From NCBI GenBank assembly GCA_012490745.1, contig GCA_012490745.1_3925.1: DNA of 64,000 nt. One strand, 5' to 3'. Below, piece after piece: positions 598 to 46,630 of this stretch. A program made the position numbers and the translations under genes. Within the stretch, counting starts at the first letter, position 1; every line of letters starts with the position of its first letter. Source of the DNA: a phage. The notes under the pieces were generated by a model. That model saw only the letters and a list, made by a program, of their open reading frames with translations. It was not told the origin of the DNA and did no database searches.

Positions 598-689
598 ATA
601 GATTTCTTTACACGGGGTTATCAGACTGATAAGATAGCCCCAGATAAAGAGCTTTATTCAAATCAACCCTTAAACTAGGAGATTCTAAA
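598..689 (+). promoter_or_regulatory. Cassette family A variant (hairpin ggggttatcagactgataagatagcccc plus conserved leader)
   Basis: Shares agataaagagcttta...ctaaactaGGAGattctaaaATG with the other cassettes. Confidence 0.55.
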
Positions 690-986
690 ATGAAATTATC
701 AAATCAAGTGCGTGAGAATCTGAGCAAATTACTCAACAAAATTGATTTCATTGAAACATCAAGGAATAGTCATGATGTTATGGAATGGTTACACGGCAAA
801 ATAAAAGGCCGTCGTGTAGTGATTTGCTTATGGAACAGTTGCAGGGAGTATAAAAAACCTGTATTGCAAGTCAATATCTATGATGATACTTTTAAAAGCC
901 CTGTAAAGTCTAAAAACGACTTATTAGAATCCTATGAGATAACTGTAAGTGGCAAAGTATCACGTAAAGAGGAAACACCATGTTAA
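690..986 (+). CDS. hypothetical early protein (98 aa)
   Basis: ORF behind cassette, SD GGAG. Confidence 0.55.
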   Translation: MKLSNQVRENLSKLLNKIDFIETSRNSHDVMEWLHGKIKGRRVVICLWNSCREYKKPVLQVNIYDDTFKSPVKSKNDLLESYEITVSGKVSRKEETPC

Positions 987-1312
987 TGACTGGTATCACT
1001 GCAATCATTGCCATTTTCGCGCTATATAAGGCATATAAAGCCTATAATCTAGCAAATAAGGCAATCACACAGCAGGTTAGAAATAACCTTGTAGAGAGCT
1101 TTCTAGGGCGTCTCAGTGATGAGCAAATAAAGCGGCTAGAGATGAGCTTCAGATACAAAGCGAAAACCTATCAGATAAGTGACATCTTCAAAGATAATTT
1201 TCAGTTAGTTGATGATTATAATTCTCTGATAAATGCTTTAAATGTCAGTGACTTAAAAGACTACTACGCTGTAATTGTTCAAGAGTTGAGCAAACGAAAA
1301 CAAAACTGTTGA
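980..1312 (+). CDS. hypothetical early protein (110 aa), N-terminal hydrophobic segment
   Basis: ATG overlaps upstream stop (translational coupling), SD agaGGAaa; start could be ATG at 986. Confidence 0.5.
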   Translation: MLMTGITAIIAIFALYKAYKAYNLANKAITQQVRNNLVESFLGRLSDEQIKRLEMSFRYKAKTYQISDIFKDNFQLVDDYNSLINALNVSDLKDYYAVIVQELSKRKQNC

Positions 1313-1401
1313 CACTGGTTTTTAGATAGATTAAATTACACATCAACGGGGAGGGAATGACCTTCCCCACTAAATAAAGTCCTAAACTGGAGATTCTGAA
1401 A
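1309..1401 (+). promoter_or_regulatory. Cassette family B: TTGACA-17nt-TAAATT promoter, 5'UTR hairpin ggggagggaatgaccttcccc, conserved leader and SD
   Basis: Sigma70-like -35/-10 spacing; copies at 2170-2267 and 3745-3825 (latter has ttgtca). Confidence 0.6.
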
Positions 1402-1674
1402 ATGTATACTACTAACAACGGTCGCACCTTAAATGTCACCTTGCGTCACTATGTAGACGGTGTGATGTGCTTTGAAGATTTACGGGCTGAGCAACACATC
1501 TTAAATTGGCAAGTTGCAGGACTCCAAAAAACTGCTACAGGATACGGGAAAAAGATTCCAACCAGTTGGAAAGTACACTACGAAGGACGTTTGCGCAGAA
1601 TTTATCAGGATGTGCAAAGCAATAGCGCATCGAGTTACATTATAGTAAAAGGCAAAAAACTGCATTTAATGTAA
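1402..1674 (+). CDS. hypothetical early protein (90 aa)
   Basis: ORF behind cassette B. Confidence 0.55.
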   Translation: MYTTNNGRTLNVTLRHYVDGVMCFEDLRAEQHILNWQVAGLQKTATGYGKKIPTSWKVHYEGRLRRIYQDVQSNSASSYIIVKGKKLHLM

Positions 1675-1760
1675 AGTACTTTACAAGGGGCTTATAGTTC
1701 GATAAAGTAAGCCCCAGATAAAGAGCTTTACCACTAAATCCTAAATTGGAGAACTTAAAA
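1675..1760 (+). promoter_or_regulatory. Cassette family A copy
   Basis: Near-identical to 1-84. Confidence 0.6.
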
Positions 1761-2165
1761 ATGGCTATTAATAACCGTGAATTATCAATTTTAAAAGCAC
1801 GTTTGACCGTTAACCGGATTAATGTTATCACGTCATCAGCACCAGATGAAACACTGCAAAACATTATTGGGAAGATTCAAAGTGTTATCTTAGACGTTGA
1901 AAGCGTAAAAAATTCATTGGCTGACGTTGCAGCAGGTATCACACTAGACGGTGCGCAATATGAAATGTCCGACATGTTAGGCAAATCTAAGGTAATGAAT
2001 AAAGAGTTAGATTTGAAAATGTTCCGATTTGCTGTTAAAGTGTGGCTATCTGTCGAGTATGATGCTAACTTTGCAATCGCTGACTTTTTCGCCACTTGGT
2101 TGCAGCGTAATTTGACTAATCATGACTTCCGCGATATCTGTGATGCAATTTATGCAGAACTCTAA
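1761..2165 (+). CDS. hypothetical early protein (134 aa)
   Basis: ATG at 1761 sits at the conserved cassette position; the ORF-track start 1746 is a TTG inside the cassette. Confidence 0.55.
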   Translation: MAINNRELSILKARLTVNRINVITSSAPDETLQNIIGKIQSVILDVESVKNSLADVAAGITLDGAQYEMSDMLGKSKVMNKELDLKMFRFAVKVWLSVEYDANFAIADFFATWLQRNLTNHDFRDICDAIYAEL

Positions 2166-2169
2166 AAAA

Positions 2170-2267
2170 ATTTTGTTGACACTGGTTTTTAGATAGATTA
2201 AATTACACATCAACGGGGAGGGAATGACCTTCCCCACTAAATAAAGTCCTAAACTGGAGATTCAAAA
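2170..2267 (+). promoter_or_regulatory. Cassette family B copy
   Basis: TTGACA at 2175 plus 5'UTR hairpin, near-identical to 1309-1401. Confidence 0.6.
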
Positions 2268-2471
2268 ATGGCTATTATTAATGGTTTAACCATTGAAACT
2301 ACACACATCAAAGATATCAAAGTTGGCGATATAGTCCTTTCCCACGGCGTAGAAAAAACTGTCACTGCAAAGGATATCAAAGAGGATTCTTTCATGGGTA
2401 GGACTCTCTTCGGTGATTCTTATTGCTTAGGCTATCTTGCAGTTTTAAAAGTTGTCAAAAATAACAAATAA
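2268..2471 (+). CDS. hypothetical early protein (67 aa)
   Basis: ORF behind cassette B. Confidence 0.5.
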   Translation: MAIINGLTIETTHIKDIKVGDIVLSHGVEKTVTAKDIKEDSFMGRTLFGDSYCLGYLAVLKVVKNNK

Positions 2472-2557
2472 AGTACTTTACAAGGGGCTTAAAAGTTGAT
2501 AACTTAAGCCCCAGATAAAGAGCTTTACCACTAAATCCTAAACTGGAGATTCTAAAA
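2472..2557 (+). promoter_or_regulatory. Cassette family A copy (hairpin loop variant)
   Basis: Stem ggggctta/taagcccc conserved, loop differs. Confidence 0.55.
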
Positions 2558-2806
2558 ATGATGAACTACTTTAACATTCCCGATACCTGTAGATTATTGA
2601 CACAAGAAGAAAATTTGGGTAAACCTTTCATTTACCACATGCCAGATAACACGGCAAAAACTTATAGTTACAATGTTAACCGTTTCACCGCATACGCTGC
2701 AAAGAACGGCTATAGGTTGGTTACTCAAAAAGTAATGCTGGTTACAACTGCTGGCGAGATTCCTACAGTTGCAGTCAAACTAGTTTTCTCAAAGAAAGTT
2801 AAATAA
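2558..2806 (+). CDS. hypothetical early protein (82 aa)
   Basis: ORF behind cassette A. Confidence 0.5.
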   Translation: MMNYFNIPDTCRLLTQEENLGKPFIYHMPDNTAKTYSYNVNRFTAYAAKNGYRLVTQKVMLVTTAGEIPTVAVKLVFSKKVK

Positions 2807-2891
2807 AGTACTTTACAAGGGGCTTATAGTTCGATAAAGTAAGCCCCAGATAAAGAGCTTTACTACTCAATCCTAAACTGGAGATTCAAAA
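2807..2891 (+). promoter_or_regulatory. Cassette family A copy
   Basis: Near-identical to 1-84. Confidence 0.6.
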
Positions 2892-3434
2892 ATGAAATGT
2901 TATCACGGAACTACTCAAGAAAATTTCCTCAACCTGATTAATAACGGTGATAAACCATCAGGCGCATGGAATTGTTCGGATATGGACGGCAATTTTTACG
3001 TGTATCCAGAAAATAAAATCTATGGCGACGATGATGAAGAGATAACATCGGAGGGCATTCAGCAAGCTCTAGGGAACGCCACTATTACGGCGGCCTTCCA
3101 GATGAAAACCCAAAATATTGTTATCTTAGAACTCGATATTCCAGATGATGAGCTAAATGATGATTATTCTTGTGATAATATGTCGAGTGTAGCAAGTTTT
3201 ACAGAGTACTTTGATGTAAACTGGATTAAAAAGGTCTATACAACAGAGTTTAACGCTATGTATTCGCCTTTTTGTCTTCCTTCACTGGATAACCCAAATA
3301 TGAACTATCTTGATGAGACATTAGAACTACTTGCTAAAAGTGTTCAACAGTCGGACAGTATTCAGGTTTTTTGTGACATCATGGATACACTGACAGGAAA
3401 CATCGCAGAAGAGGATTTAAAGAGCTTTTTCTAA
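2892..3434 (+). CDS. hypothetical early protein (180 aa)
   Basis: ORF behind cassette A. Confidence 0.55.
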   Translation: MKCYHGTTQENFLNLINNGDKPSGAWNCSDMDGNFYVYPENKIYGDDDEEITSEGIQQALGNATITAAFQMKTQNIVILELDIPDDELNDDYSCDNMSSVASFTEYFDVNWIKKVYTTEFNAMYSPFCLPSLDNPNMNYLDETLELLAKSVQQSDSIQVFCDIMDTLTGNIAEEDLKSFF

Positions 3435-3466
3435 AAACCTATGCAATCACCTTATAAACACTATTT

Positions 3467-3486
3467 AGCCCCTTACAGGGGCTTTT
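3467..3486 (+). terminator. Rho-independent terminator-like hairpin agcccctt-aca-ggggct followed by T run
   Basis: GC stem plus tttt downstream of the 2892-3434 stop. Confidence 0.5.
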
Positions 3487-3500
3487 GGGAGGCTTAAATC

Positions 3501-3734
3501 ATGCTTACAACCGTTTACCTCATCCTTTCTATTTGTAACGGTCATTCATGCGATTTTAAAGGGCTTGAAGAGTTTACAGGAAGTAAAGAAAATGCTATTC
3601 AAGTTTGCCAGATAGCAAGACAAGACTATCCCGCTAGTGATGATATACAATGTTACTTTAAGACAGAAGATGAAGACGGTATCTATTTTGACAGCGTAGA
3701 TGGTCAGTATGAAATTATCATTGAAAAAGACTAG
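3501..3734 (+). CDS. hypothetical early protein (77 aa)
   Basis: ORF with SD gGGAGG; Cys-containing small protein. Confidence 0.5.
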   Translation: MLTTVYLILSICNGHSCDFKGLEEFTGSKENAIQVCQIARQDYPASDDIQCYFKTEDEDGIYFDSVDGQYEIIIEKD

Positions 3735-3744
3735 ACAAGCCTGA

Positions 3745-3825
3745 TAAAAATCTGTAAATTGTCAATCAACGGGGAGGGAATGACCTTCCCCACTAAGTAC
3801 AATCCTTAAACTAGGAGATTCAAAA
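3745..3825 (+). promoter_or_regulatory. Cassette family B copy (ttgtca variant)
   Basis: 5'UTR hairpin ggggagggaatgaccttcccc plus conserved leader. Confidence 0.5.
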
Positions 3826-4167
3826 ATGGCTTATGTAACCGTAATTACCGATAAAGAAAATTCATCTTGGTCAACTCAAGTAAGTGATAAGATGTCACCT
3901 ATGCAGTGCCTAAAATACTTTGAGCAGTGGAACAAAGGCGAGGATGTCAGCCCCTTTCAAGTGATGCAAATCATCCATACAGATAACGAAGGGAATAAAA
4001 CGGTTTTAAATAGTGAGTACTACGCAAGCCGTTTTGAAACTAGAAGTAAAACAATGAAGCTTTTACGTGAATCCGGTTATGCCCATATCGCCGCGCTAAT
4101 CTGGGATGACCTGCTAAAAAGACAGCGTATCAGCTATGTAAAACCTGAAAAAATATTCATCAGTTAA
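3826..4167 (+). CDS. hypothetical early protein (113 aa)
   Basis: ORF behind cassette. Confidence 0.55.
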   Translation: MAYVTVITDKENSSWSTQVSDKMSPMQCLKYFEQWNKGEDVSPFQVMQIIHTDNEGNKTVLNSEYYASRFETRSKTMKLLRESGYAHIAALIWDDLLKRQRISYVKPEKIFIS

Positions 4168-4189
4168 TCAATAACTTACAAAAAACTTT

Positions 4190-4386
4190 TAAAAAAGTGT
4201 TGACAATACCCATTGACATTGGTAACTTTGTTCGAGGGGGTTATCTAAAAGGGATTCACTTAAAAGATTCTTTATAGATAAGCTTAAAAAATTGCTTGCA
4301 ATCAGCTATCAAAACAAGTAAATTACTAATCAACGGGAGGGATGACCTCCCCACTAAATAAAAATCCTTAAACTAGGAGAGTCAAA
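4190..4386 (+). promoter_or_regulatory. Composite region: tandem TTGACA boxes (gttgacaatacccattgacattgg), hairpin gggagggatgacctcccc, conserved leader
   Basis: Two -35-like hexamers 14 nt apart, then family C cassette (taaattactaatcaacgggagg...). Confidence 0.5.
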
Positions 4387-4917
4387 ATGAACAAGTTTAA
4401 AGCTATCAACTTCATTCGTTCAAATGCTGTAATGTCTAAGCCTGTAAAAGATACATATGAATTCCGTTGTAATGGGGTACATTTCGCAACAATCACCAAA
4501 TCAGAAAACGGGGCTTATTACGTTCATCGTCGTAATGTCTCAACCGTTGTAGTCTCTCACTTTATGCAAGCTGTAGCGGAATTATTACCGTTATTCTTAG
4601 AGATTTATCTAGATGAGTGTAAAAACGTTCACAACCACGTTAAAAACCTTTTAAACGGTTATAAAATGGCTTATGAACGTTCTATCAAGTCACTAAACAA
4701 GTTTTACAATGCACCTGCAAATACTGTTTCAATGGCTTATGATGTAAACGGTGAGTTAGTTAGTCTCTTTAAAGTGGAAGAAATTAAACTGTATAATTTA
4801 CGTCCTAGTGGTTACTCTAAGACTCTTGGTGAAGGTTTAACGTTCAATATCAAGAACTTAGAAAAAACTTTAAAAGATATTGAAAAAGATATTGACGAGA
4901 CAATCAAAAGTCTGTAA
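4387..4917 (+). CDS. hypothetical early protein (176 aa)
   Basis: ORF behind cassette, SD aGGAGa. Confidence 0.55.
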   Translation: MNKFKAINFIRSNAVMSKPVKDTYEFRCNGVHFATITKSENGAYYVHRRNVSTVVVSHFMQAVAELLPLFLEIYLDECKNVHNHVKNLLNGYKMAYERSIKSLNKFYNAPANTVSMAYDVNGELVSLFKVEEIKLYNLRPSGYSKTLGEGLTFNIKNLEKTLKDIEKDIDETIKSL

Positions 4918-4982
4918 ATTACTAATCAACGGGAGGCGATAACCTCCCCACTAAATAAAACCCTTAAACTAGGAGATTCAAG
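4918..4982 (+). promoter_or_regulatory. Cassette family C (taaattactaatcaacgggaggNgatNacctcccc...ctaGGAGattcaaNATG)
   Basis: Copies at 4310-4386 and 5247-5311. Confidence 0.55.
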
Positions 4983-5246
4983 ATGGAAAACGTAGAATTA
5001 ACCACACTTTTACAAATTGCAACCGACAAAGAAGATGTAGCATTATTTCACCGTATTGAAAGTGATTTGTTCAATGGTGAAATCATCAAAGAATCTTACG
5101 AAGTTGTCGGATTCAAAGATGGTAAAGCGTTTGGCTTTTTTGACCTCGATAAAGGCAACGCTGTTACAAAATATGATGTTTTATCTTGTGAGATTCTTAC
5201 AAAATACAACGAAAAAAGGCTTGCAACATACGCCAATATGCAGTAA
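4983..5246 (+). CDS. hypothetical early protein (87 aa)
   Basis: ORF behind cassette C. Confidence 0.5.
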   Translation: MENVELTTLLQIATDKEDVALFHRIESDLFNGEIIKESYEVVGFKDGKAFGFFDLDKGNAVTKYDVLSCEILTKYNEKRLATYANMQ

Positions 5247-5311
5247 ATTACTAATCAACGGGAGGGATGACCTCCCCACTAAATAAAACCCTTAAACTAG
5301 GAGATTCAAAA
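5247..5311 (+). promoter_or_regulatory. Cassette family C copy
   Basis: Near-identical to 4918-4982. Confidence 0.55.
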
Positions 5312-5560
5312 ATGGCAACTATCCGCGCTACTGTTAACGAGTTCGGTTTTTCCTCTCTGGATGTTAAATTTGACATTGCAGGCACTGATAACGCCTTTGA
5401 AATGGTGAAATGTCTTATCAGTCAGACCATCAAAGACTATAATCCTTCGGATGAGTTCTGGGAGGAAACAAAACAAGAAGTTCTCAAGGATGGTTATACT
5501 TATCACTATTGGGGAGAAAAAATCGTCTCCCTGTACTACAACAAACAAGATTATAACTAA
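5312..5560 (+). CDS. hypothetical early protein (82 aa)
   Basis: ATG at the conserved cassette position; the ORF-track start 5267 reads through the cassette. Confidence 0.55.
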   Translation: MATIRATVNEFGFSSLDVKFDIAGTDNAFEMVKCLISQTIKDYNPSDEFWEETKQEVLKDGYTYHYWGEKIVSLYYNKQDYN

Positions 5561-5598
5561 TCGACGCAGCGGGGCTATTTAGCCCCAGATACCCTAAC

Positions 5599-5623
5599 AG
5601 CCCCTATTTAAAGGGGCTTTTTT
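5599..5623 (+). terminator. Rho-independent terminator (agcccct-attta-aaggggct + ttttt); a second hairpin at 5571-5586
   Basis: GC stem-loop followed by T run after the last early gene. Confidence 0.6.
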
Positions 5624-5625
5624 AC

Positions 5626-7236
5626 GTCTATCGAATCCTTATACAATCCCTTTCCCTCACCTTTCCAGAATCTTATCAGACCTTAAAAGCAATAACTCTA
5701 TAGTCTACTCTATAACCTCTTATCAAATCAACTTAAATATAAGCCCATAACCCGAAAGGGAAGGGCAACCCCTTAAACGCTCTATAACGCCCTATAACAG
5801 CCTTATCAACCTAACTTAAGGGGTTGCATTAACTCACCCTAAAAAGCCCTTCCTAGAGCTTCCTAGAACCTTAAAAGAATCTTATAAGGGTGTAAGCTTT
5901 ATTATCTCGTTAGCTATCTTGTGAACTACTAAACAAGCCCCTTGATAGTAACTGAAAAGTATGTTATAGGGGCTATAAAGTTACTTCAAAGTTGCTTAAA
6001 AGTTACGTAAATGCTAGCCCCCTTAACATTTTCTTAACAATTTCTTAACAAACCCTACATAGTTATGCTTTTAAGGCACTTGTTAGCAACTTGTTAGCCC
6101 CTTGTTAAATCTCTGTCAAGACCACGTAAAAGCCTTGTAAGAACCTTTGACATAGTCTTTAAAGCCCCTGTAAAGCCCTATAAAGAGGTATCTGTACAGT
6201 TGGGGTGTAATTACTAGGAAGAGGCTTAAAAGAGCTTACAAGGGGCTATAGAGAGCTTTTAAGAGGGCTATTTAGAGAATCACTAAGAAAGAGAGGGAAC
6301 GATAAGAAAAGAGATAGTGACCATGTTAATAGCTTGTTAAAAAGATTAAACACTTGTTAGAAACTTGTTAATTATCTTAACAAAATAACTCTTAAAAATT
6401 AACTTGTTAGCTCTTGTTAGTCATCTGTTAAGACTCTGTAAAGACCATGTATCGTCTGTTAAGAAACTGTTAAGCCCTTGTTAGTTATGTTAAGAATCTG
6501 TTAAGACCTCTGAAGAGATGTTAAGAGATTGAGAGAGTTGTTAAGAGATTGTTAAGGATATTTTAAAATTCTGCAAAGTACTTGTAAGGGAGCTGTTAAG
6601 GGCTACCAAGCAGATATACATCTTCTACAGATATTTTTCAGTTCCTTCAAAGACCCTAAAAAATGACTTGATAGTCCTATTTTATAAAAATTTTAAAAAT
6701 CTGAATAATTACCTATACAGTCTTTCTAAAATACAGGTAATAACAGGCTTATAAGATACCTTGTTAGTACCGTGTTAGACCTTGTGAGATAAGGTCTGTA
6801 AAGATATTCCTGTTAAGTTTGTTAAAACAGTCTATATAGAGGCTTAGTAGCACCTAGTGAACACCTATAGAGAGTATCATAGCTGACATAATGGGTTACT
6901 GTTAAGTAACACAGATAACCTAGAGATTAAGAGGTGTATAGGAGCTTCTAAGAGAGTGTAGAGAGATGGTTAAGGTGATTGTATAGGTTGTTAAGAAGGC
7001 TTGTTAGAAGAGTGTTTAGAGGGCTATTTAGAAGGGCTATACAGAGGGCTATTAAGACCACTAGATAGTTACTAAGATACTATATAGTACTATATAACTA
7101 TATAGAGAGTAAGATTAAGAAGGTTGTTAAGAAGGGTAGATATTTTATTCACATATGATGGTGACCCAGAGGTTGGGACAACCGATAAAATTTTACTCAA
7201 TAAAAAGCCCCCGATTAAGGAGGCTCTTAAGATATT
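5626..7236. repeat. ORF-free region dense in short direct repeats (CTTGTTAG / CTGTTAAG / TGTTAAGA and GGGCTAT(T/A)(T/A)AGA families)
   Basis: No ORF of 60 aa or more on either strand in the track; dozens of 7-9 nt repeat copies, clustered at 6000-6600. Confidence 0.7.
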
Positions 7237-7860: not shown

Positions 7861-8263
7861 CCTCTGAAACTAAAAATGTAATACCACATAAGTGTCTGTA
7901 ACGACTATCATACTCGAATATCTTAAACAGATATTTACCATCATGATAAACCTGTTGCACTTCACCTTCTGCAACAATCTCGCCTGTAATAAAATTTTTT
8001 AGTTTATATACATTACCAACTTTAGGTACTGTTTTCATCTCAGGCTCTTTTAGTGCTACACCTATTTTTGCATCACCGAGTAAATGAGAACTCTCAAAAG
8101 CTACGTGTTTCATATAAGCTTCTGAGCATTCCCAAATAAAACAGTGTACAAGAACCTTAGCAGCATGTCTTGAGCAGTTCAACTTATCACAAATTTCTGT
8201 GTACATCTCATCTTTAGTAGAATTGTCAAGCATTGCTCTTTGCACTACTTCTTTAATTTTCAT
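7799..8263 (-). CDS. hypothetical protein (154 aa)
   Basis: ORF in a co-directional minus-strand block. Confidence 0.5.
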   Translation of the reverse strand: MKIKEVVQRAMLDNSTKDEMYTEICDKLNCSRHAAKVLVHCFIWECSEAYMKHVAFESSHLLGDAKIGVALKEPEMKTVPKVGNVYKLKNFITGEIVAEGEVQQVYHDGKYLFKIFEYDSRYRHLCGITFLVSEDDLIKNNSNKFAVPEYQVLR

Positions 8264-42338: not shown

Positions 42339-43526
42339 ATGGCAGTAGGTGAAATTCAAATTAGTGCCTTGCCTCAAGCAGCCTTACCAATTGACCTTAG
42401 TGATATCTTCCATCTTAAACAAGGTATTGAGGATAAGAGATGCACTCTTGAGCAATTACTTGCTCCACACTCAAGCCTAAGAAATAACCCTCATGGTGTT
42501 ACTAAAACACAAATTGGTTTAGATAACGTTATCAATGCTCTTCAGTTAGTTGCTGCAAATAACTTATCAGACGTTACTAATGTAGCTCAGGCAAGAGCAA
42601 ATCTACAGATTATGTCTTCAGAAGAGGTTAATAATCTTGTTCAACAGCATATTCAGGACAAGAGCAACCCACATAATACAACTAAGGCACAGGTAGGATT
42701 GAGTAATGTTCAGAACTGGACAACATCTAACCTTTATAACGAAGATGCAGATAAGTATGCTACAGCAAGAGCAGTAAATAACTTGTACAAGGCTGTTCAG
42801 GCTTCTTATCCAGTAGGTACTATCCATCTTTCCATGAACTCTGCAAACCCTTCTACGTATTTAATTTGTGGAGGAACTTGGGAGTTAGTTTCAAAAGGTA
42901 GAGCATTGGTTGGTTATGACTCTGACACAAGACCAGCAGGTTCTGTATTTGGTGCTTCAACTGTCACTTTGTCAGTTAATAACATGCCTCAACACTCTCA
43001 CTCTGTGTCTCTTAGTGGTGGTGGTCATACTCATAATGCAACGGTGTCAATTTCAGCTTTTGACTATGGGACTAAGACTACCAACTCTTTTGACTATGGA
43101 ACTAAGACCACTAACACAACTGGTAACCACAACCATGTTGGTAGTGGGTCAACAAGTTCTGCTGGTGCTCATAACCACAGATTGACCTATGAATCAGGTG
43201 GTGGTTTATCGGAAAGACCTGCAATGGTTTGGTCTTCAAGGAATGACCAATCATGGTACTCAGCAGATGCTGTCTGTGAAGTAGCTGGTGCACACACTCA
43301 CTCTTTCAGTGTTACCACTAACACAACTGGTAACCACAACCATACGGTTGGTATTGGTGCTCATAGCCACACAGTTGGTATTGGTTCGCATACACATAAT
43401 GGTACTGTAACAGTTTCTTCTTCTGAACATACGCATAGCGGGAACACTAATAGTGTTGGTGGTGGACAAGCTTTCAATATTGAGCAGCCATCCTTCGTAC
43501 TGTATGTATGGCAGAGAACGGCTTAA
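42339..43526 (+). CDS. tail fiber protein with C-terminal His-x-His repeat tip domain (395 aa)
   Basis: Repeated HSHS/HTHN/HNHV/HTHS/HSHT motifs, duplicated FDYGTKTTN; C-terminal module shared with 43573-45951. Confidence 0.7.
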   Translation: MAVGEIQISALPQAALPIDLSDIFHLKQGIEDKRCTLEQLLAPHSSLRNNPHGVTKTQIGLDNVINALQLVAANNLSDVTNVAQARANLQIMSSEEVNNLVQQHIQDKSNPHNTTKAQVGLSNVQNWTTSNLYNEDADKYATARAVNNLYKAVQASYPVGTIHLSMNSANPSTYLICGGTWELVSKGRALVGYDSDTRPAGSVFGASTVTLSVNNMPQHSHSVSLSGGGHTHNATVSISAFDYGTKTTNSFDYGTKTTNTTGNHNHVGSGSTSSAGAHNHRLTYESGGGLSERPAMVWSSRNDQSWYSADAVCEVAGAHTHSFSVTTNTTGNHNHTVGIGAHSHTVGIGSHTHNGTVTVSSSEHTHSGNTNSVGGGQAFNIEQPSFVLYVWQRTA

Positions 43527-43572
43527 TTTCTTTACAGGGGCTTTATAGCCCCTTTTAAGAGGAAAATTTATA

Positions 43573-45951
43573 ATGGCAGATTACAAGTTGAGTGAATTAA
43601 ACTCAATCGATACAATCCGTTCAGATGACCTTCTTCATGTCAGAGTTAAAAAGAGACCTGAAATGCTGGGTGATGAAGACCGTCGAATGACCTATCAAGA
43701 CTTCTTAGCATCTTTTAAACTCGAAAGATTTGTTCAGATTGCTGGTAGCACTATGACGGGTGACTTAGGTATTGTCAAACTTCTTTATGGTGGTAAGGCA
43801 GTATTTGACCCAACAGGCTCTTCTGAGATTAATATTGGGGACGTTTTAAAGACTTTTAAAATTAACTCAAACGGTCTTAAGCTAACTATTGCAGACGCTT
43901 CAAGGTCGGCAACTGTTTATCACACTCTGAATAAGCCAAGTCCTAATGAGCTTGGGATGAGAACTAATGAAGAGAATGATGCAAGATACTCAAGATTAGC
44001 TGCAAATAACATCTTTACCTTCCAACAGGTTATTCAAGCAAATGGCGAAGCTATTAGACTAAAAAATTCTTCTGAGAACTCACCGTTGTATATTAGAGGT
44101 CAGGACAGCACTGGTGCTAATAGGTGGTATGTAGGTAATGGTTCAGGGAATGATGATGTTATTATCCACAACTACAAGACAGGTTGTGAAGTGAATCTGT
44201 CTAGTGTTGCTGCTATTAGCAAGACACTTAGAATCACTGGTCAAGTCCAACCTTCTGACTTCTCTAACTTAGATGCTAGATACTTCACACAGACAGTTGC
44301 TAATCAGAGATTTGCACAGTTAAATGCTAGTAATGTTCTTTATGGTGCTAATACATTTAAAAAAGATGTTGTATTTAACTCAGATATCCCTGTCATTCTT
44401 AAGAGTCTAACAGCTAACAAACCATTATATATTCTAGGTAGAGATGACCAAAACTCCAACTTGTGGTTTGTTGGTAAAGGTGGTTCGGGAACAGAGATTA
44501 AATTCTATAACTATGTGAGTGATACGGTTTTAGAGTTGTCTGAGACGGCAAGATTTAATAAAACTTTGAAGATTACTGGTCAAGTTCAACCATCTGATTG
44601 GACTAACATTGACTCTAGATATATTCCAGCAGCAACTTTGAGTAATCTTGCTAAGATTAATGTGGCTAACACTTTTACAAATGTGCAGACTATTGTATCT
44701 AACAATGAAGGTCTAGTATTGAGGAACTTAACACAGGGTCAGCCACAATATATCCGTGGTGTTGATACTGCGAATGTATCTAGGTGGTGGGTAGGTGTAG
44801 GTGGTACAAATTCTACTGATGTAGCCTTAAACAACAGCTCATCTGGGACTCAAATTACCCTTATGACTTCAGCGATTAAGGCTAATAAGAATCTAACCAT
44901 TACTGGTCAAGTTCAACCTTCTGATTGGTCTAACTTAGATGCTAGATATTTTGTTAAAACTCAGTTATTAAACCAATCCTTAATGACTGTCTCTGTAGAT
45001 AACCTTGAAAACCCTTCAGGTTTTAATCTTGGATATTCAGGTTTTGTCAGAAACAATGCGGTTACTAGTGGACTGAAAGAATTGGCAATCCATGTTGCGC
45101 ACTCTAATAAGACTGCTGCACATGCAAGAGGAATCTCTTTTGTGTATGGCTCAAATGGACTGGCAACATTTACCTATGCCTATGACAAAAATGGTGACTA
45201 TGCCGGAGAAGCACAGATTTATACAACTGATTTTAAACCAACCCCTTCAGATATTGGTGCATACACTAAAGCTGAAACTGACCAGAAGATTGCACAAGCT
45301 GTAAGCGACTCCACAGACCTTAACAAAATCTATCCAGTGGGTATTGTAACGTGGTTTAACAGTAATGTTAACCCTAATACAGCACTTCCTGGGTTAACTT
45401 GGACGTACCTTAACAATGGTGTTGGTAGAACTATCAGGATTGCAGCAGCAAACGGTTCAGATGTTGCTACAACTGGCGGTTCAGATTCTGTGACGTTAGC
45501 TGTTGGTAACTTACCATCACACACTCACAGCTTCTCTGCTACCACTTCATCTTTTGATTATGGTACGAAGAGCACTAATAGTACTGGTGGTCACACCCAC
45601 ACTGTAAGTGGTACAACAAGTGCTGCGGGTAACCATGCTCACCACTTAGGTCTGCTATTGGTTAATGGTGGTGATGCTCAGTATGGTTACACAACTGTTA
45701 GCAACAGCAAGACAAGAACTCTTGACTGGCTTGATAGAAAAGATAACAAATTCCCTAACACTAACACAACTGGTAACCATACACACACATGGTCTGGTAC
45801 TACAAGTAACACTGGTGCTCACACCCACTCTGTAGGTATCGGTGCTCACACTCATACAGTTAGTGGTAACACTGGTGGTACAGGTTCTGGTTCAGCATTC
45901 AGTGTTACTAACCAGTTCTACAAGTTAATGGCTTGGGTAAGAACTGCTTAA
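43573..45951 (+). CDS. long tail fiber protein with three internal ~110-aa repeats and HxH-rich C-terminal tip (792 aa)
   Basis: Repeated L(R/K)ITGQVQPSD(F/W)(S/T)N(L/I)D(A/S)RY motif roughly every 330 nt; C-terminal HTHS...HTHT...W(V)RTA like the preceding fibre. Confidence 0.75.
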   Translation: MADYKLSELNSIDTIRSDDLLHVRVKKRPEMLGDEDRRMTYQDFLASFKLERFVQIAGSTMTGDLGIVKLLYGGKAVFDPTGSSEINIGDVLKTFKINSNGLKLTIADASRSATVYHTLNKPSPNELGMRTNEENDARYSRLAANNIFTFQQVIQANGEAIRLKNSSENSPLYIRGQDSTGANRWYVGNGSGNDDVIIHNYKTGCEVNLSSVAAISKTLRITGQVQPSDFSNLDARYFTQTVANQRFAQLNASNVLYGANTFKKDVVFNSDIPVILKSLTANKPLYILGRDDQNSNLWFVGKGGSGTEIKFYNYVSDTVLELSETARFNKTLKITGQVQPSDWTNIDSRYIPAATLSNLAKINVANTFTNVQTIVSNNEGLVLRNLTQGQPQYIRGVDTANVSRWWVGVGGTNSTDVALNNSSSGTQITLMTSAIKANKNLTITGQVQPSDWSNLDARYFVKTQLLNQSLMTVSVDNLENPSGFNLGYSGFVRNNAVTSGLKELAIHVAHSNKTAAHARGISFVYGSNGLATFTYAYDKNGDYAGEAQIYTTDFKPTPSDIGAYTKAETDQKIAQAVSDSTDLNKIYPVGIVTWFNSNVNPNTALPGLTWTYLNNGVGRTIRIAAANGSDVATTGGSDSVTLAVGNLPSHTHSFSATTSSFDYGTKSTNSTGGHTHTVSGTTSAAGNHAHHLGLLLVNGGDAQYGYTTVSNSKTRTLDWLDRKDNKFPNTNTTGNHTHTWSGTTSNTGAHTHSVGIGAHTHTVSGNTGGTGSGSAFSVTNQFYKLMAWVRTA

Positions 45952-46030: not shown

Positions 46031-46225
46031 ATGCCTACAATCCTAGCAATTCTTCTAAAAAATCTAGGTAGCTTCTTCTGGAAACTCATTTTATCCCTTC
46101 TAAGTGAATACATGATTGAGAAAGTGTTCTTTAATCTTGCAAGATACCTTGCGAGTAAAACAGACACACCTATTGATGATGAGTTCGTAGATAACTTAGA
46201 AAAAGCTTTTAAGGGGGAGAAATAA
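46031..46225 (+). CDS. small hydrophobic protein, possible holin-like (64 aa)
   Basis: N-terminal hydrophobic segment ILAILLKNLGSFFWKLILSLL; downstream of the fibre genes. Confidence 0.35.
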   Translation: MPTILAILLKNLGSFFWKLILSLLSEYMIEKVFFNLARYLASKTDTPIDDEFVDNLEKAFKGEK

Positions 46226-46597
46226 ATGAAGTGGCTAGAGGAAGCTTTTAAAAATAATATTGGTGCAATTGTAGTTGGTATTTTTAGTGTTATTGGGATG
46301 TATACCACGATGCAGGTTTCAAGTGGTAAACAAGAAGTGTCTGTCACAACAAAGTTACAGCAGCTAGATAATTATTCCAAAAGTAACTATTCAGCTATTC
46401 GTGATTTACAGTCTGACATGAGACTGATTCAGCTAGGGATGGAGAACCAGAAAGTTCAGTTAGAGAATGTTAAGGGTGAAAACGCAAAACTTACCAAAAC
46501 TCTTGATAAATTCTCTGACAGTGTGAACAATCTGGCTCAATCAGTATCAGCCCTCCAAGCTATTACTGAAAAGAACACAAAGAATACTGAAAAATAA
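46226..46597 (+). CDS. membrane-anchored coiled-coil protein, possible i-spanin-like (123 aa)
   Basis: N-terminal TM helix GAIVVGIFSVIGMYTT followed by a heptad-rich periplasmic-type domain. Confidence 0.4.
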   Translation: MKWLEEAFKNNIGAIVVGIFSVIGMYTTMQVSSGKQEVSVTTKLQQLDNYSKSNYSAIRDLQSDMRLIQLGMENQKVQLENVKGENAKLTKTLDKFSDSVNNLAQSVSALQAITEKNTKNTEK

Positions 46598-46601
46598 AGT
46601 T

Positions 46602-46630
46602 TAAGGCTCCTTTTTACGGGAGCCTTTTTT
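46602..46630. terminator. Bidirectional rho-independent terminator (ggctcc-tttttac-gggagcc flanked by T/A runs)
   Basis: Sits between convergent gene blocks. Confidence 0.65.

Follow-up and report, generated by a model that had tools for sequence, protein, structure and literature searches.

The tail fibres of Felix O1-like phages have been described by cryo-EM in Bas63 (Escherichia phage JohannRWettstein; 2025, PMC12609058), the fibre tips of which consist of a T4 gp37-like collar, needle and head and are accompanied by repeated shaft domains, and in Sf14 (PMC11821841), for which a matching architecture was described; homology of the tips of the short and long fibres to T4 gp37 had been reported for VpaE1 (2015). 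The fibre pairs Bas63 gp26/gp27, Sf14 gp52/gp53, VpaE1 gp74/gp75 and Felix O1 ORF76/77 share the same layout, namely a baseplate-binding domain, shaft, collar, needle with HxH motifs and head. In Bas63, the long fibre shaft is built from five repeat domains, invariant in number, with helix-turn linkers between them, and, according to the same paper (PMC12609058), Fe is coordinated along the T4 gp37 needle by HxH motifs. In the adhesins of T-even phages, as summarized in the passage of PMC3157838 that cites Tetart et al. (1996, 1998), short conserved motifs flank variable specificity segments and exchanges occur there.

The locus considered here lies in a stretch of phage DNA of 64,000 nucleotides (the window), which is 96% identical in DNA to LF82P5 (Felixounavirus) and matches 240 phage records, mainly of Escherichia and Salmonella phages and many of them bearing the name Felixounavirus. 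By its sequence, the source phage is assigned to Felixounavirus, as a Felix O1-like myophage of E. coli. The gene order is that of Bas63 and Felix O1, with a baseplate wedge protein (489 aa), a 285-aa protein and a 100-aa protein preceding the short and the long fibre, and, 3' of the latter, two small ORFs and then, encoded on the other strand, thymidylate synthase and DHFR. The short fibre is 75% identical to Bas63 gp26, being nearly identical over aa 1-200, and the long fibre is 61% identical to Bas63 gp27, with near identity over aa 1-140. It is on the basis of this sequence similarity and of the synteny with Bas63 and Felix O1 that the pair is assigned to the Bas63 gp26/gp27 type, and that its members are identified as orthologues of Bas63 gp26/gp27 and Felix O1 ORF76/ORF77. 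Both open reading frames were confirmed at the exact coordinates given below, where the parts of the short fibre come first.

42339..43526, + strand: short tail fibre gene, 395 aa; ORF, orthologue of Bas63 gp26 / Felix O1 ORF76; match to PHROG 2097 'tail fiber protein', E 9e-137
42339..42743, + strand: N-terminal baseplate-binding region and shaft, aa 1-135, with EDKRCT at aa 31-36; family conservation, role from the Bas63 and Sf14 cryo-EM
42744..42983, + strand: collar of Gp10_C / tail-collar type, aa 136-215; Pfam PF21939 E 1.4e-18, PDB matches to the T4 gp10 C-terminal domain, Foldseek match to 2FKK with prob 0.96
42984..43178, + strand: ascending needle strand, aa 216-280, HxH at 219, 230, 264, 278; alignment to 2XGF and motif positions
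43179..43292, + strand: head, aa 281-318, predicted to bind the receptor; entropy in the family alignment peaks here, alignment with the T4 gp37 head segment
43293..43526, + strand: descending needle strand and C-terminus, aa 319-395, HxH at 319, 333, 342, 351, 364, last residues VWQRTA; motifs and 2XGF alignment

43573..45951, + strand: long tail fibre gene, 792 aa; ORF, orthologue of Bas63 gp27 / Felix O1 ORF77; full-length match to PHROG 4277
43573..43992, + strand: N-terminal baseplate-binding region (EDRRMT, aa 35-40) and first shaft domain, aa 1-140; family conservation
43993..44295, + strand: shaft module 1, aa 141-241, ending in ITGQVQPSDFSNLDARY; module HMM aa 141-241 E 2e-41, PF20744, profile homology to T7 gp17
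44296..44634, + strand: shaft module 2, aa 242-354, ending in ITGQVQPSDWTNIDSRY; module HMM aa 255-354 E 8e-34
44635..44961, + strand: shaft module 3, aa 355-463, ending in ITGQVQPSDWSNLDARY; module HMM aa 361-463 E 3e-41
44962..45237, + strand: fourth, variable shaft domain, aa 464-555; no sequence kinship to modules 1-3 (hhalign probability 0.2%)
45238..45507, + strand: linker KPTPSDIGAYT and collar, aa 556-645; weak Gp10_C Pfam match, family conservation, BLASTP to the short fibre collar
45508..45642, + strand: ascending needle strand, aa 646-690, HxH at 650, 674, 688 (HAHH); motifs and 2XGF alignment
45643..45777, + strand: head, aa 691-735, predicted to bind the receptor; entropy in the family alignment peaks here
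45778..45951, + strand: descending needle strand and C-terminus, aa 736-792, HxH at 736, 750, 759, last residues AWVRTA; 2XGF alignment, Pfam Phage_fiber repeat at aa 755-767
45541..45860, + strand: 320-nt tract shared with gp37 of the T4-like phage BYEP01, spanning the FDYGTK box, distal needle and head (aa 657-763); 85% DNA identity, ungapped

The two genes very probably encode two trimeric side fibres of a Felixounavirus, each anchored on the baseplate by its conserved N-terminal domain and carrying at its far end a receptor-binding tip of the T4 gp37 type. Each tip would comprise a collar like that of gp10/gp12, a six-stranded beta-barrel as the needle, formed because the chain travels outwards and then returns, and, at the far end, a small variable head expected to contact the receptor. 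In the short fibre, aa 1-135 are strongly conserved, 89-99% of the unique sequences from 28 loci carrying the window's residue. The N-terminal and collar regions of both fibres are nearly identical to those of Bas63, whereas the head sequences differ. An architecture of this kind is already published for the genus and the initial annotation, correct in substance, largely restated what is known of Felix O1-like phages and added little to it.

The short fibre collar scores 68.6 bits against Gp10_C (PF21939), above the gathering threshold of 27 bits, and that of the long fibre 20.9 bits, under the same threshold, but still aligns with the short fibre collar. The former resembles the C-terminal domain of T4 gp10/gp12 (PF21939, tail collar PF07484; structures 2FKK and 5HX2), with the difference that in the window's fibres the protein does not end there, a long needle and the head following the collar. 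The HxH that comes first, within (N)xP(Q/S)HxHS, is the counterpart of the zinc-binding His pair of gp12.

The tip structure of T4 gp37 (2XGF) is matched by aa 146-367 of the short fibre (E 2.3e-26) and by aa 648-771 of the long one (E 5.2e-19), with collar, needle and head in the same order, and with the FDYGTK boxes, GxHxH repeats and individual HxH motifs aligning one-to-one. The nine HxH of the short fibre and the six of the long fibre belong to GxHxH repeats set on the outgoing and returning strands around the variable head (4+5 and 3+3, respectively). The seven motifs of T4 gp37 correspond to 230, 264, 278 / 319, 333, 342, 351 of the short fibre, which has two extra HxH near the collar, and the first six to 650, 674, 688 / 736, 750, 759 of the long fibre, which has one fewer. 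Seven HxH are found in the Bas63 short fibre, where extra FDYG-type repeats replace two ascending units; in the window's short fibre, the decapeptide FDYGTKTTN(S/T) occurs in tandem within the ascending strand (30-nt repeat detected by TRF at 43057-43115). Unlike T4 gp37, these tips are carried on a much shorter, single-protein fibre. A T4-like head (YIEAWNGTG...SNTNAAGN) is found in some relatives, namely VpaE1 and a further locus (L009). By sequence homology, then, both tips are related to the receptor-binding tip of T4 gp37. As to the ends of the two proteins, each of the tetrapeptides HSHS, HTHN, HNHT, HTHS and HSHT that had been listed as clustered there is found, while the C-termini, described as near-identical, share the final W(Q/V)RTA but belong to tips just 36% identical over ~230 aligned columns. 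This ending is retained in all 28 related loci, with minor variants such as WKRTA, WKRVA and WVKTA.

Metal binding by the HxH motifs of both fibres is inferred by homology to T4. Most likely, the motifs are stacked on the three-fold axis, three HxH per metal ion as with Fe in T4, so that the metal ions would stiffen the needle at up to nine predicted sites in the short fibre and six in the long one. In a tip of the T4 gp37 type, each ion would be octahedrally coordinated by six His contributed by the three intertwined chains of the trimer. That the His-x-His clusters are instead a compositional feature of a Gly/Ser/Thr/His-rich fibre, with no metal bound, appears highly improbable, in that the motifs align singly with those that bind Fe in T4 gp37 (PMC12609058), that HxH motifs account for every one of the 18 His in the short tip and for 12 of 13 in the long tip, and that no columns in an alignment of 56 diverse homologues are better conserved than these histidines, which are invariant or nearly so. 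The observed counts were reached by none of 20000 shuffles of either whole protein, and in 2 of 20000 when the long tip was shuffled alone. In favour of a compositional origin, AlphaFold2 gave a weak model of the short tip as a monomer (pLDDT 67, pTM 0.33), and the Foldseek matches of this model did not include 2XGF, the collar alone matching gp10.

The chaperones gp38 and gp57A are required by T4 gp37. Adjoining the window's fibre genes no gp38-type chaperone is recognizable, the downstream ORFs at 46031-46225 and 46226-46597 belonging to PHROGs of unknown function and the 123-aa one giving nothing above threshold in a Pfam scan, and therefore the folding of these fibres may differ from that in T4. 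An adjacent assembly protein is present in BYEP01, the bearer of the same head.

What distinguishes the long fibre from the short one is a shaft insertion made up of variable domains. Three of these are modules of ~102 aa with the conserved linker ITGQVQPSDxxNxDxRY between them. The annotated motif ITGQVQPSD(F/W)(S/T)N(L/I)D(A/S)RY is indeed present in each, at aa 221, 334 and 443, spaced by 113 and 109 aa, and PF20744 (gp37_trimer) recognizes three stretches (E 2.6e-71, 236.1 bits against a gathering threshold of 21.7 bits). The module profile also matches residues 368-441 of T7 gp17 (E 9e-8) and 356-441 of Mu gpS (E 6e-3). The resemblance to the T7 gp17 pyramid domain was likewise reported for Sf14 (PMC11821841), with the difference that in T7 a single domain sits beneath the tip, and here three copies joined by linkers follow in tandem in the shaft. 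Set against the five shaft domains of Bas63, whose modules 1-4 are of other sequence types, three domains are clear in the window's sequence, as modules; in the flanking segments (aa 50-139 and 464-575) profile comparison detected no homology to the modules, and just the P-[ST]-[PD] linker motif is shared.

The three ~330-nt repeats proposed by the initial annotation hold at the protein level, but not in the DNA, which is 52-54% identical between modules when codon-aligned, with a longest exact match of 20 nt, and Tandem Repeats Finder reports no 330-nt period. These figures bear on a literal reading of the mechanism in the initial annotation, by which tips and internal repeats alike arose by recent duplication and recombine inside the genome, altering repeat number or swapping tips at appreciable frequency. 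The shared 17-aa motif, the 78-89% DNA identity around it and the out-of-register cassette and shared short/long heads of some relatives, described below, would fit such an origin. Nevertheless, that identity is confined to 50-70 nt, the two fibre genes have no exact match longer than 21 nt, the window's heads are unrelated in sequence, and the comparison of repeat number across related phages, suggested as a check, found no variation, three modules being counted by the module HMM in 27/27 long fibres, in keeping with the invariant number in Bas63 (PMC12609058). We consider recent duplication unlikely. Since exact identity reaches at most 20-21 nt, the internal repeats and the two tips are judged, from the sequence, poor substrates for intragenomic homologous recombination.

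The further claim that repeats and tips are substrates for recombination stands in another form, in that exchange of modules and heads is supported by comparison across phages. In the family conservation profile, the linkers are conserved, and modules and heads are variable. Module types assort independently among relatives, and the fourth shaft position is occupied by three unrelated cassette types. One module cassette is found at position 1 or position 3 depending on the phage (94% DNA identity over 290 nt), a shift seen in >20 isolate genomes. With respect to its nearest relative (L012), the window differs by a clean replacement of module 2, nt ~44319-44558 being 43-60% identical with flanks >90%, and identity breaking at the linkers within about 60 nt and then recovering. 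Cassette boundaries coincide with the FDYGTK / GxHxH boxes and the ITGQVQPSD linkers. The tract shared with gp37 of BYEP01, a Tequatrovirus from another family, is near-identical in protein to the long fibre, while the collars are little alike. The short and the long fibre of one and the same phage can also have a head in common, with 91% identity across 200 nt in UAB_Phi87 and 81% across 270 nt in Felix O1.

In the Bas63 study, the poorly conserved shaft domains are explained by ‘substantial sequence variation between species’ and recombination is not invoked (PMC12609058), and module and head diversity might accordingly be ascribed to point mutation under diversifying selection. The abrupt fall in identity at the linkers and its recovery, the independent assortment of module types, the cassette at another position and the tract common to a phage of another family make such an origin scarcely credible. 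Cassette exchange is preferred. The comparison shows whole modules and heads passing from one co-infecting phage to another, from one fibre gene to the other, and to or from T4-like phages, the conserved linkers and boxes being the putative crossover sites.

We tentatively propose, as a possibility well short of established, that the linker ITGQVQPSDxxNxDxRY and the FDYGTK / GxHxH boxes are built-in crossover sites which make the modules movable, that heads can be copied between fibres (as in Felix O1 and other Salmonella phages, where both fibres would be focused on one receptor) and can be traded with T4-like phages as well, and that the shaft modules, as variable as the heads, are a second, so far unrecognized determinant of specificity or of anti-defence. 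The general principle of exchange at conserved motifs is old, and variable segments bounded by conserved motifs are common to the window and to the T-even adhesins, as far as the latter are covered by the summary cited above. The Felixounavirus pattern differs in being drawn from comparative genomics in a different phage subfamily, and in adding exchange between paralogous fibre genes and out-of-register placement of modules; no paper reporting such exchanges for the genus was found in the searchable library. The boxes and linkers mark natural, tolerated junctions, which may help phage engineering, as heads or shaft modules of Felixounavirus and T4-like phages could be swapped there to retarget host range.

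The two heads of the window being unrelated to each other in sequence, each fibre probably recognizes a different surface structure on O-antigen-bearing E. coli. Alternatively, the short fibre could act like T4 gp12, i.e. be deployed after the long fibres have bound, for irreversible attachment, rather than as an independent second receptor-binding fibre. Its gp10/gp12-type collar, the location of the Bas63 short and long fibres on different wedge subunits (PMC12609058) and the closely similar heads on both fibres of Felix O1-type Salmonella phages, which fit sequential binding to one receptor, speak for this role. The short fibre of Bas63, however, measures 430 Å and, as the long fibre does, lies folded upwards against the sheath instead of being tucked beneath the baseplate (PMC12609058), and the window's short fibre has a gp37-type tip with a variable head unlike that of the long fibre, which leaves a gp12-like role rather doubtful and favours two receptor-binding fibres.

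Head types track the host genus, as a correlation of database labels. The short fibre head type of the window occurs in 32 phage records, nearly all of E. coli or Shigella phages, and the long fibre head type in 36, including the Tequatrovirus BYEP01; both are almost confined to E. coli, Shigella and Felixounavirus records with unnamed host. The Felix O1 head type occurs in 78 records, mostly of Salmonella phages (70/78), and at two places per record in most rows among the matches listed. As a separate observation, the members infecting Salmonella carry closely similar heads on both fibres, whereas the window's E. coli phage carries two different ones.

The two fibre genes lie exactly where the initial annotation had placed them, as ORFs at 42339-43526 (+ strand, 395 aa; the short fibre) and 43573-45951 (+ strand, 792 aa; the long fibre), and their products have in common an N-terminal motif, EDKRCT in the short fibre (42429-42446) and EDRRMT in the long one (43675-43692). 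The region is 96% identical to that of Felixounavirus LF82P5, and 240 phage records match it, the majority of them from phages of Escherichia and Salmonella and many under the name Felixounavirus. The gene order is that of Bas63 (JohannRWettstein, MZ501086), namely baseplate genes, the short and long fibre genes gp26 and gp27, two small ORFs and then td and frd on the opposite strand; the fibre region of Felix O1 is arranged in the same way. Identity of the window proteins to their Bas63 counterparts is 75% (gp26) and 61% (gp27), the N-termini and collars being near-identical. A promoter and terminator scan around the fibre genes returned nothing above chance except for a bidirectional terminator. 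The features found 3' of the long fibre gene are:

46031-46225, small conserved ORF of 64 aa, function unassigned, with a hydrophobic N-terminal stretch (judged by eye)
46226-46597, small conserved ORF of 123 aa, function unassigned, also with a hydrophobic N-terminal stretch (judged by eye)
46603-46626, bidirectional terminator, at which the two small ORFs end and which divides the late operon from the oppositely oriented td and frd

Both fibres terminate in W(Q/V)RTA and, as first noticed from the sequence, carry clusters of HxH motifs, nine in the short fibre (aa 219-366) and six in the long fibre (aa 650-761); such motifs account for all 18 histidines in the short tip and for 12 of the 13 in the long tip. 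The observed count was reached in 0/20000 whole-protein shuffles for either fibre, and in 2/20000 when the long tip alone was shuffled. The C-terminal regions of the two fibres are 36% identical over ~230 aligned columns (E 4e-23), and each directly matches the T4 gp37 tip structure 2XGF, which comprises collar, HxH needle and head (short fibre aa 146-367, E 2.3e-26; long fibre aa 648-771, E 5.2e-19); a further match of the short fibre is to the gp10 C-terminal domain. Upon alignment to 2XGF, the HxH motifs (aa positions) are placed as follows:

Short fibre, outgoing strand 230, 264 and 278, returning strand 319, 333, 342 and 351: counterparts of the seven T4 motifs
Short fibre, outgoing strand 219, returning strand 364: no T4 counterpart; nearest the collar
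Long fibre, outgoing strand 650, 674 and 688, returning strand 736, 750 and 759: counterparts of the first six T4 motifs

With direct matches to 2XGF and HxH motifs that align motif for motif, the structural interpretation originally put forward, which likened the tips to the needle domain of the T4 long tail fibre, is right by strong homology. The HxH motifs of T4 gp37 bind Fe, according to the Bas63 paper (PMC12609058), and, by homology to T4, both window fibres would be expected to bind metal as well. When 56 diverse homologues are aligned, the HxH histidines make up most of the invariant or near-invariant columns, along with a few Gly, Trp and FDYG-box positions. The FDYGTKTTN decapeptide of the short fibre is duplicated, as it is in T4 (TDLGTKTTS and SFDYGTKGTNS); a tandem 30-nt duplication at 43057-43115 of the window encodes FDYGTKTTN(S/T) twice, the same pair being present in T4 gp37, and one to four units of this type are found among relatives. 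In the Bas63-type short fibre, extra FDYG-type units replace two HxH motifs, so that the composition of the needle varies (nine vs seven HxH). For the short tip, an AlphaFold2 monomer model built from the 56-sequence alignment reached only pLDDT 67 and pTM 0.33; when the PDB was searched with it by Foldseek, no structure matched at E <= 1e-3, the sole resemblance being that of its collar to gp10 (prob 0.96). The model says nothing on the geometry of the histidines; an intertwined trimer lies beyond what a monomer can represent.

Fibres of this kind have already been described, in the papers on Bas63, VpaE1 and Sf14, so that the two-fibre finding as initially written was already known and its structural reading is published for the genus. 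As early as 2015, the C-termini of both VpaE1 fibres were found by BLASTP to be homologous to the T4 gp37 adhesin, and a similar picture of the fibres was given for Sf14, in a sister genus. In the 2025 cryo-EM study of Bas63 (PMC12609058), the short fibre gp26 measures 430 Å and the long fibre gp27 630 Å, with seven HxH motifs in the former and six plus an extra His in the latter; our motif count on the Bas63 sequence reproduces the published numbers, including HHNH at 692-695. The same study describes five repeat domains in the long fibre, with helix-turn motifs between them, and reports that across the genus the tips and repeat domains vary and the repeat number is constant.

The shaft of the window long fibre contains, as originally annotated, three copies of ITGQVQPSD(F/W)(S/T)N(L/I)D(A/S)RY; these lie at aa 221, 334 and 443. 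It also has three Pfam PF20744 (gp37_trimer) domains (E 2.6e-71). These modules 1-3 had been presented as ~330-nt repeats, a description that holds for protein domains, which are 40-48% identical to one another, but not for DNA. Indeed, the codon-aligned modules are only 52-54% identical, with a longest exact match of 20 nt, and Tandem Repeats Finder detected no ~330-nt period; the modules are thus old protein-domain repeats rather than DNA repeats. The only stretch of the modules at 78-89% DNA identity is that of 50-70 nt around the linker motif. A profile of 27 module sequences matches residues 368-441 of T7 gp17 (E 9e-8) and Mu gpS (E 6e-3); according to the Sf14 paper, the C-terminus of T7 gp17 contains a beta-sheet pyramid domain, which the Sf14 long fibre resembles. 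A series of five homologous modules was rejected as sequence repeats, since comparison by hhalign of the module profile with the shaft segments that precede and follow modules 1-3 gave probabilities of 1.1% and 0.2%, i.e. no homology was detected by profile comparison; these segments have in common with the modules only the P-[ST]-[PD] linker motif.

For comparison, 28 related loci were taken from IMG/VR. Among related loci, short fibres are of 375-402 aa with seven or nine HxH motifs, and long fibres of 777-849 aa with four, six or seven. The variability of the short fibre is confined to aa ~261-320 and peaks in the head (281-318). Conservation in the long fibre covers aa 1-140, the three linkers, the collar and the C-terminal 50 aa, and variability is high in modules 1-4 and in the head (681-740). 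The number of repeats, which the initial annotation had proposed to compare across relatives, does not vary: the module HMM finds exactly three copies in 27/27 intact long fibres, which rules out a variable module number among them. The fourth shaft position (window 44962-45237; L001-L027 among the related loci) is occupied by three unrelated domain types, and the long fibres of 840-849 aa owe their length to a different, larger cassette (~65 aa longer) at this position. In two relatives, L022 and Si3 (L028), the long fibre gene is split in two ORFs (541+259 aa and 453+311 aa), through a frameshift or a sequencing error; the Si3 long fibre was flagged as incomplete in the Bas63 paper (PMC12609058). 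In phage KhF2, a 10-nt 'cos site' annotated by the depositor at 4365-4374 of locus L034 falls within the long fibre gene and seems implausible.

Among phages, module types and head types are combined independently. The window is at least 83% identical to its nearest relative, L012, in each 60-nt block, and mostly >90%, except at nt ~44319-44558 (module 2), where identity falls to 43-60% with the transitions at the linkers; identity to the related locus L001 is 90-100% in the short fibre and both tips and 42-82% in modules 1-4. Furthermore, module 1 of L003 (8789-9078) and module 3 of L005 (long fibre nt 1101-1390), two other related loci, are 94% identical in DNA over 290 nt. Among GenBank genomes, Alf5, Tribble, LinBro, pinkbiff, GE_vB_7A, SeKF_63 and DE7 have this cassette at position 1, and at least 17 Salmonella phage records have it at position 3. 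The ~290-nt cassette is therefore placed out of register, which points to exchange between the repeated linkers.

Heads are shared among phages as well. The two heads of the window (38 and 45 aa) are unrelated in sequence to each other; each occurs once per genome, in 32 (short) and 36 (long) records, almost all from E. coli, Shigella and unnamed-host Felixounavirus phages, whose named hosts are often smooth pathogenic strains (O145, O121, O1). The two fibres have different heads in E. coli members such as the window phage and Bas63; in Felix O1, UAB_Phi87 and most other Salmonella Felixounaviruses, the short and the long fibre have closely similar heads of one type. This type was found in 78 records, of which 70 are from Salmonella phages, at two places per record in most of the rows listed. 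In UAB_Phi87, a 200-nt tract (7910-8109 of locus L004) is 91% identical between the two fibre genes and the head peptide is identical; in Felix O1 (genes at 3054-4220 and 4271-6619 of locus L036), a 270-nt tract is 81% identical. Sharing also crosses families: a 320-nt stretch of the window (45541-45860), which runs from the FDYGTK box to the last HxH and takes in the head, has 85% identity to gp37 of the Tequatrovirus BYEP01, and the protein encoded by it is near-identical; the collar shows little similarity. BYEP01 (OR757453) is a T4-like phage of 169 kb, the gp37 gene of which (642-3851 of locus L035) is followed by one for a tail fibre assembly protein, no counterpart of which is recognisable beside the window fibre genes.

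The suggestion that these repeats and tips are substrates for recombination is therefore sound in spirit across phages, given the shared heads and module cassettes, but wrong as a reading of the repeats within the window genome as active substrates of homologous recombination. For T-even phages, the accepted view is that adhesins undergo exchange at conserved motifs (Tetart et al. 1996, 1998, cited in PMC3157838). Recombination is not mentioned in the Bas63 paper (PMC12609058) and no reports of these particular Felixounavirus fibre exchanges were found in the searchable literature; the exchange of cassettes, as supported by comparison, adds modestly to what is known and may be unreported.

A candidate laboratory-evolved head-swap phage, 'VpaE1_ev78', was dropped, the sole relevant paper naming it being a survey of infant-faecal coliphages. 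The long fibre heads of VpaE1 itself and of the related locus L009 (YIEAWNGTG...SNTNAAGN) are nearly identical to that of T4 gp37. Both VpaE1 and T4 use the LPS of E. coli B.
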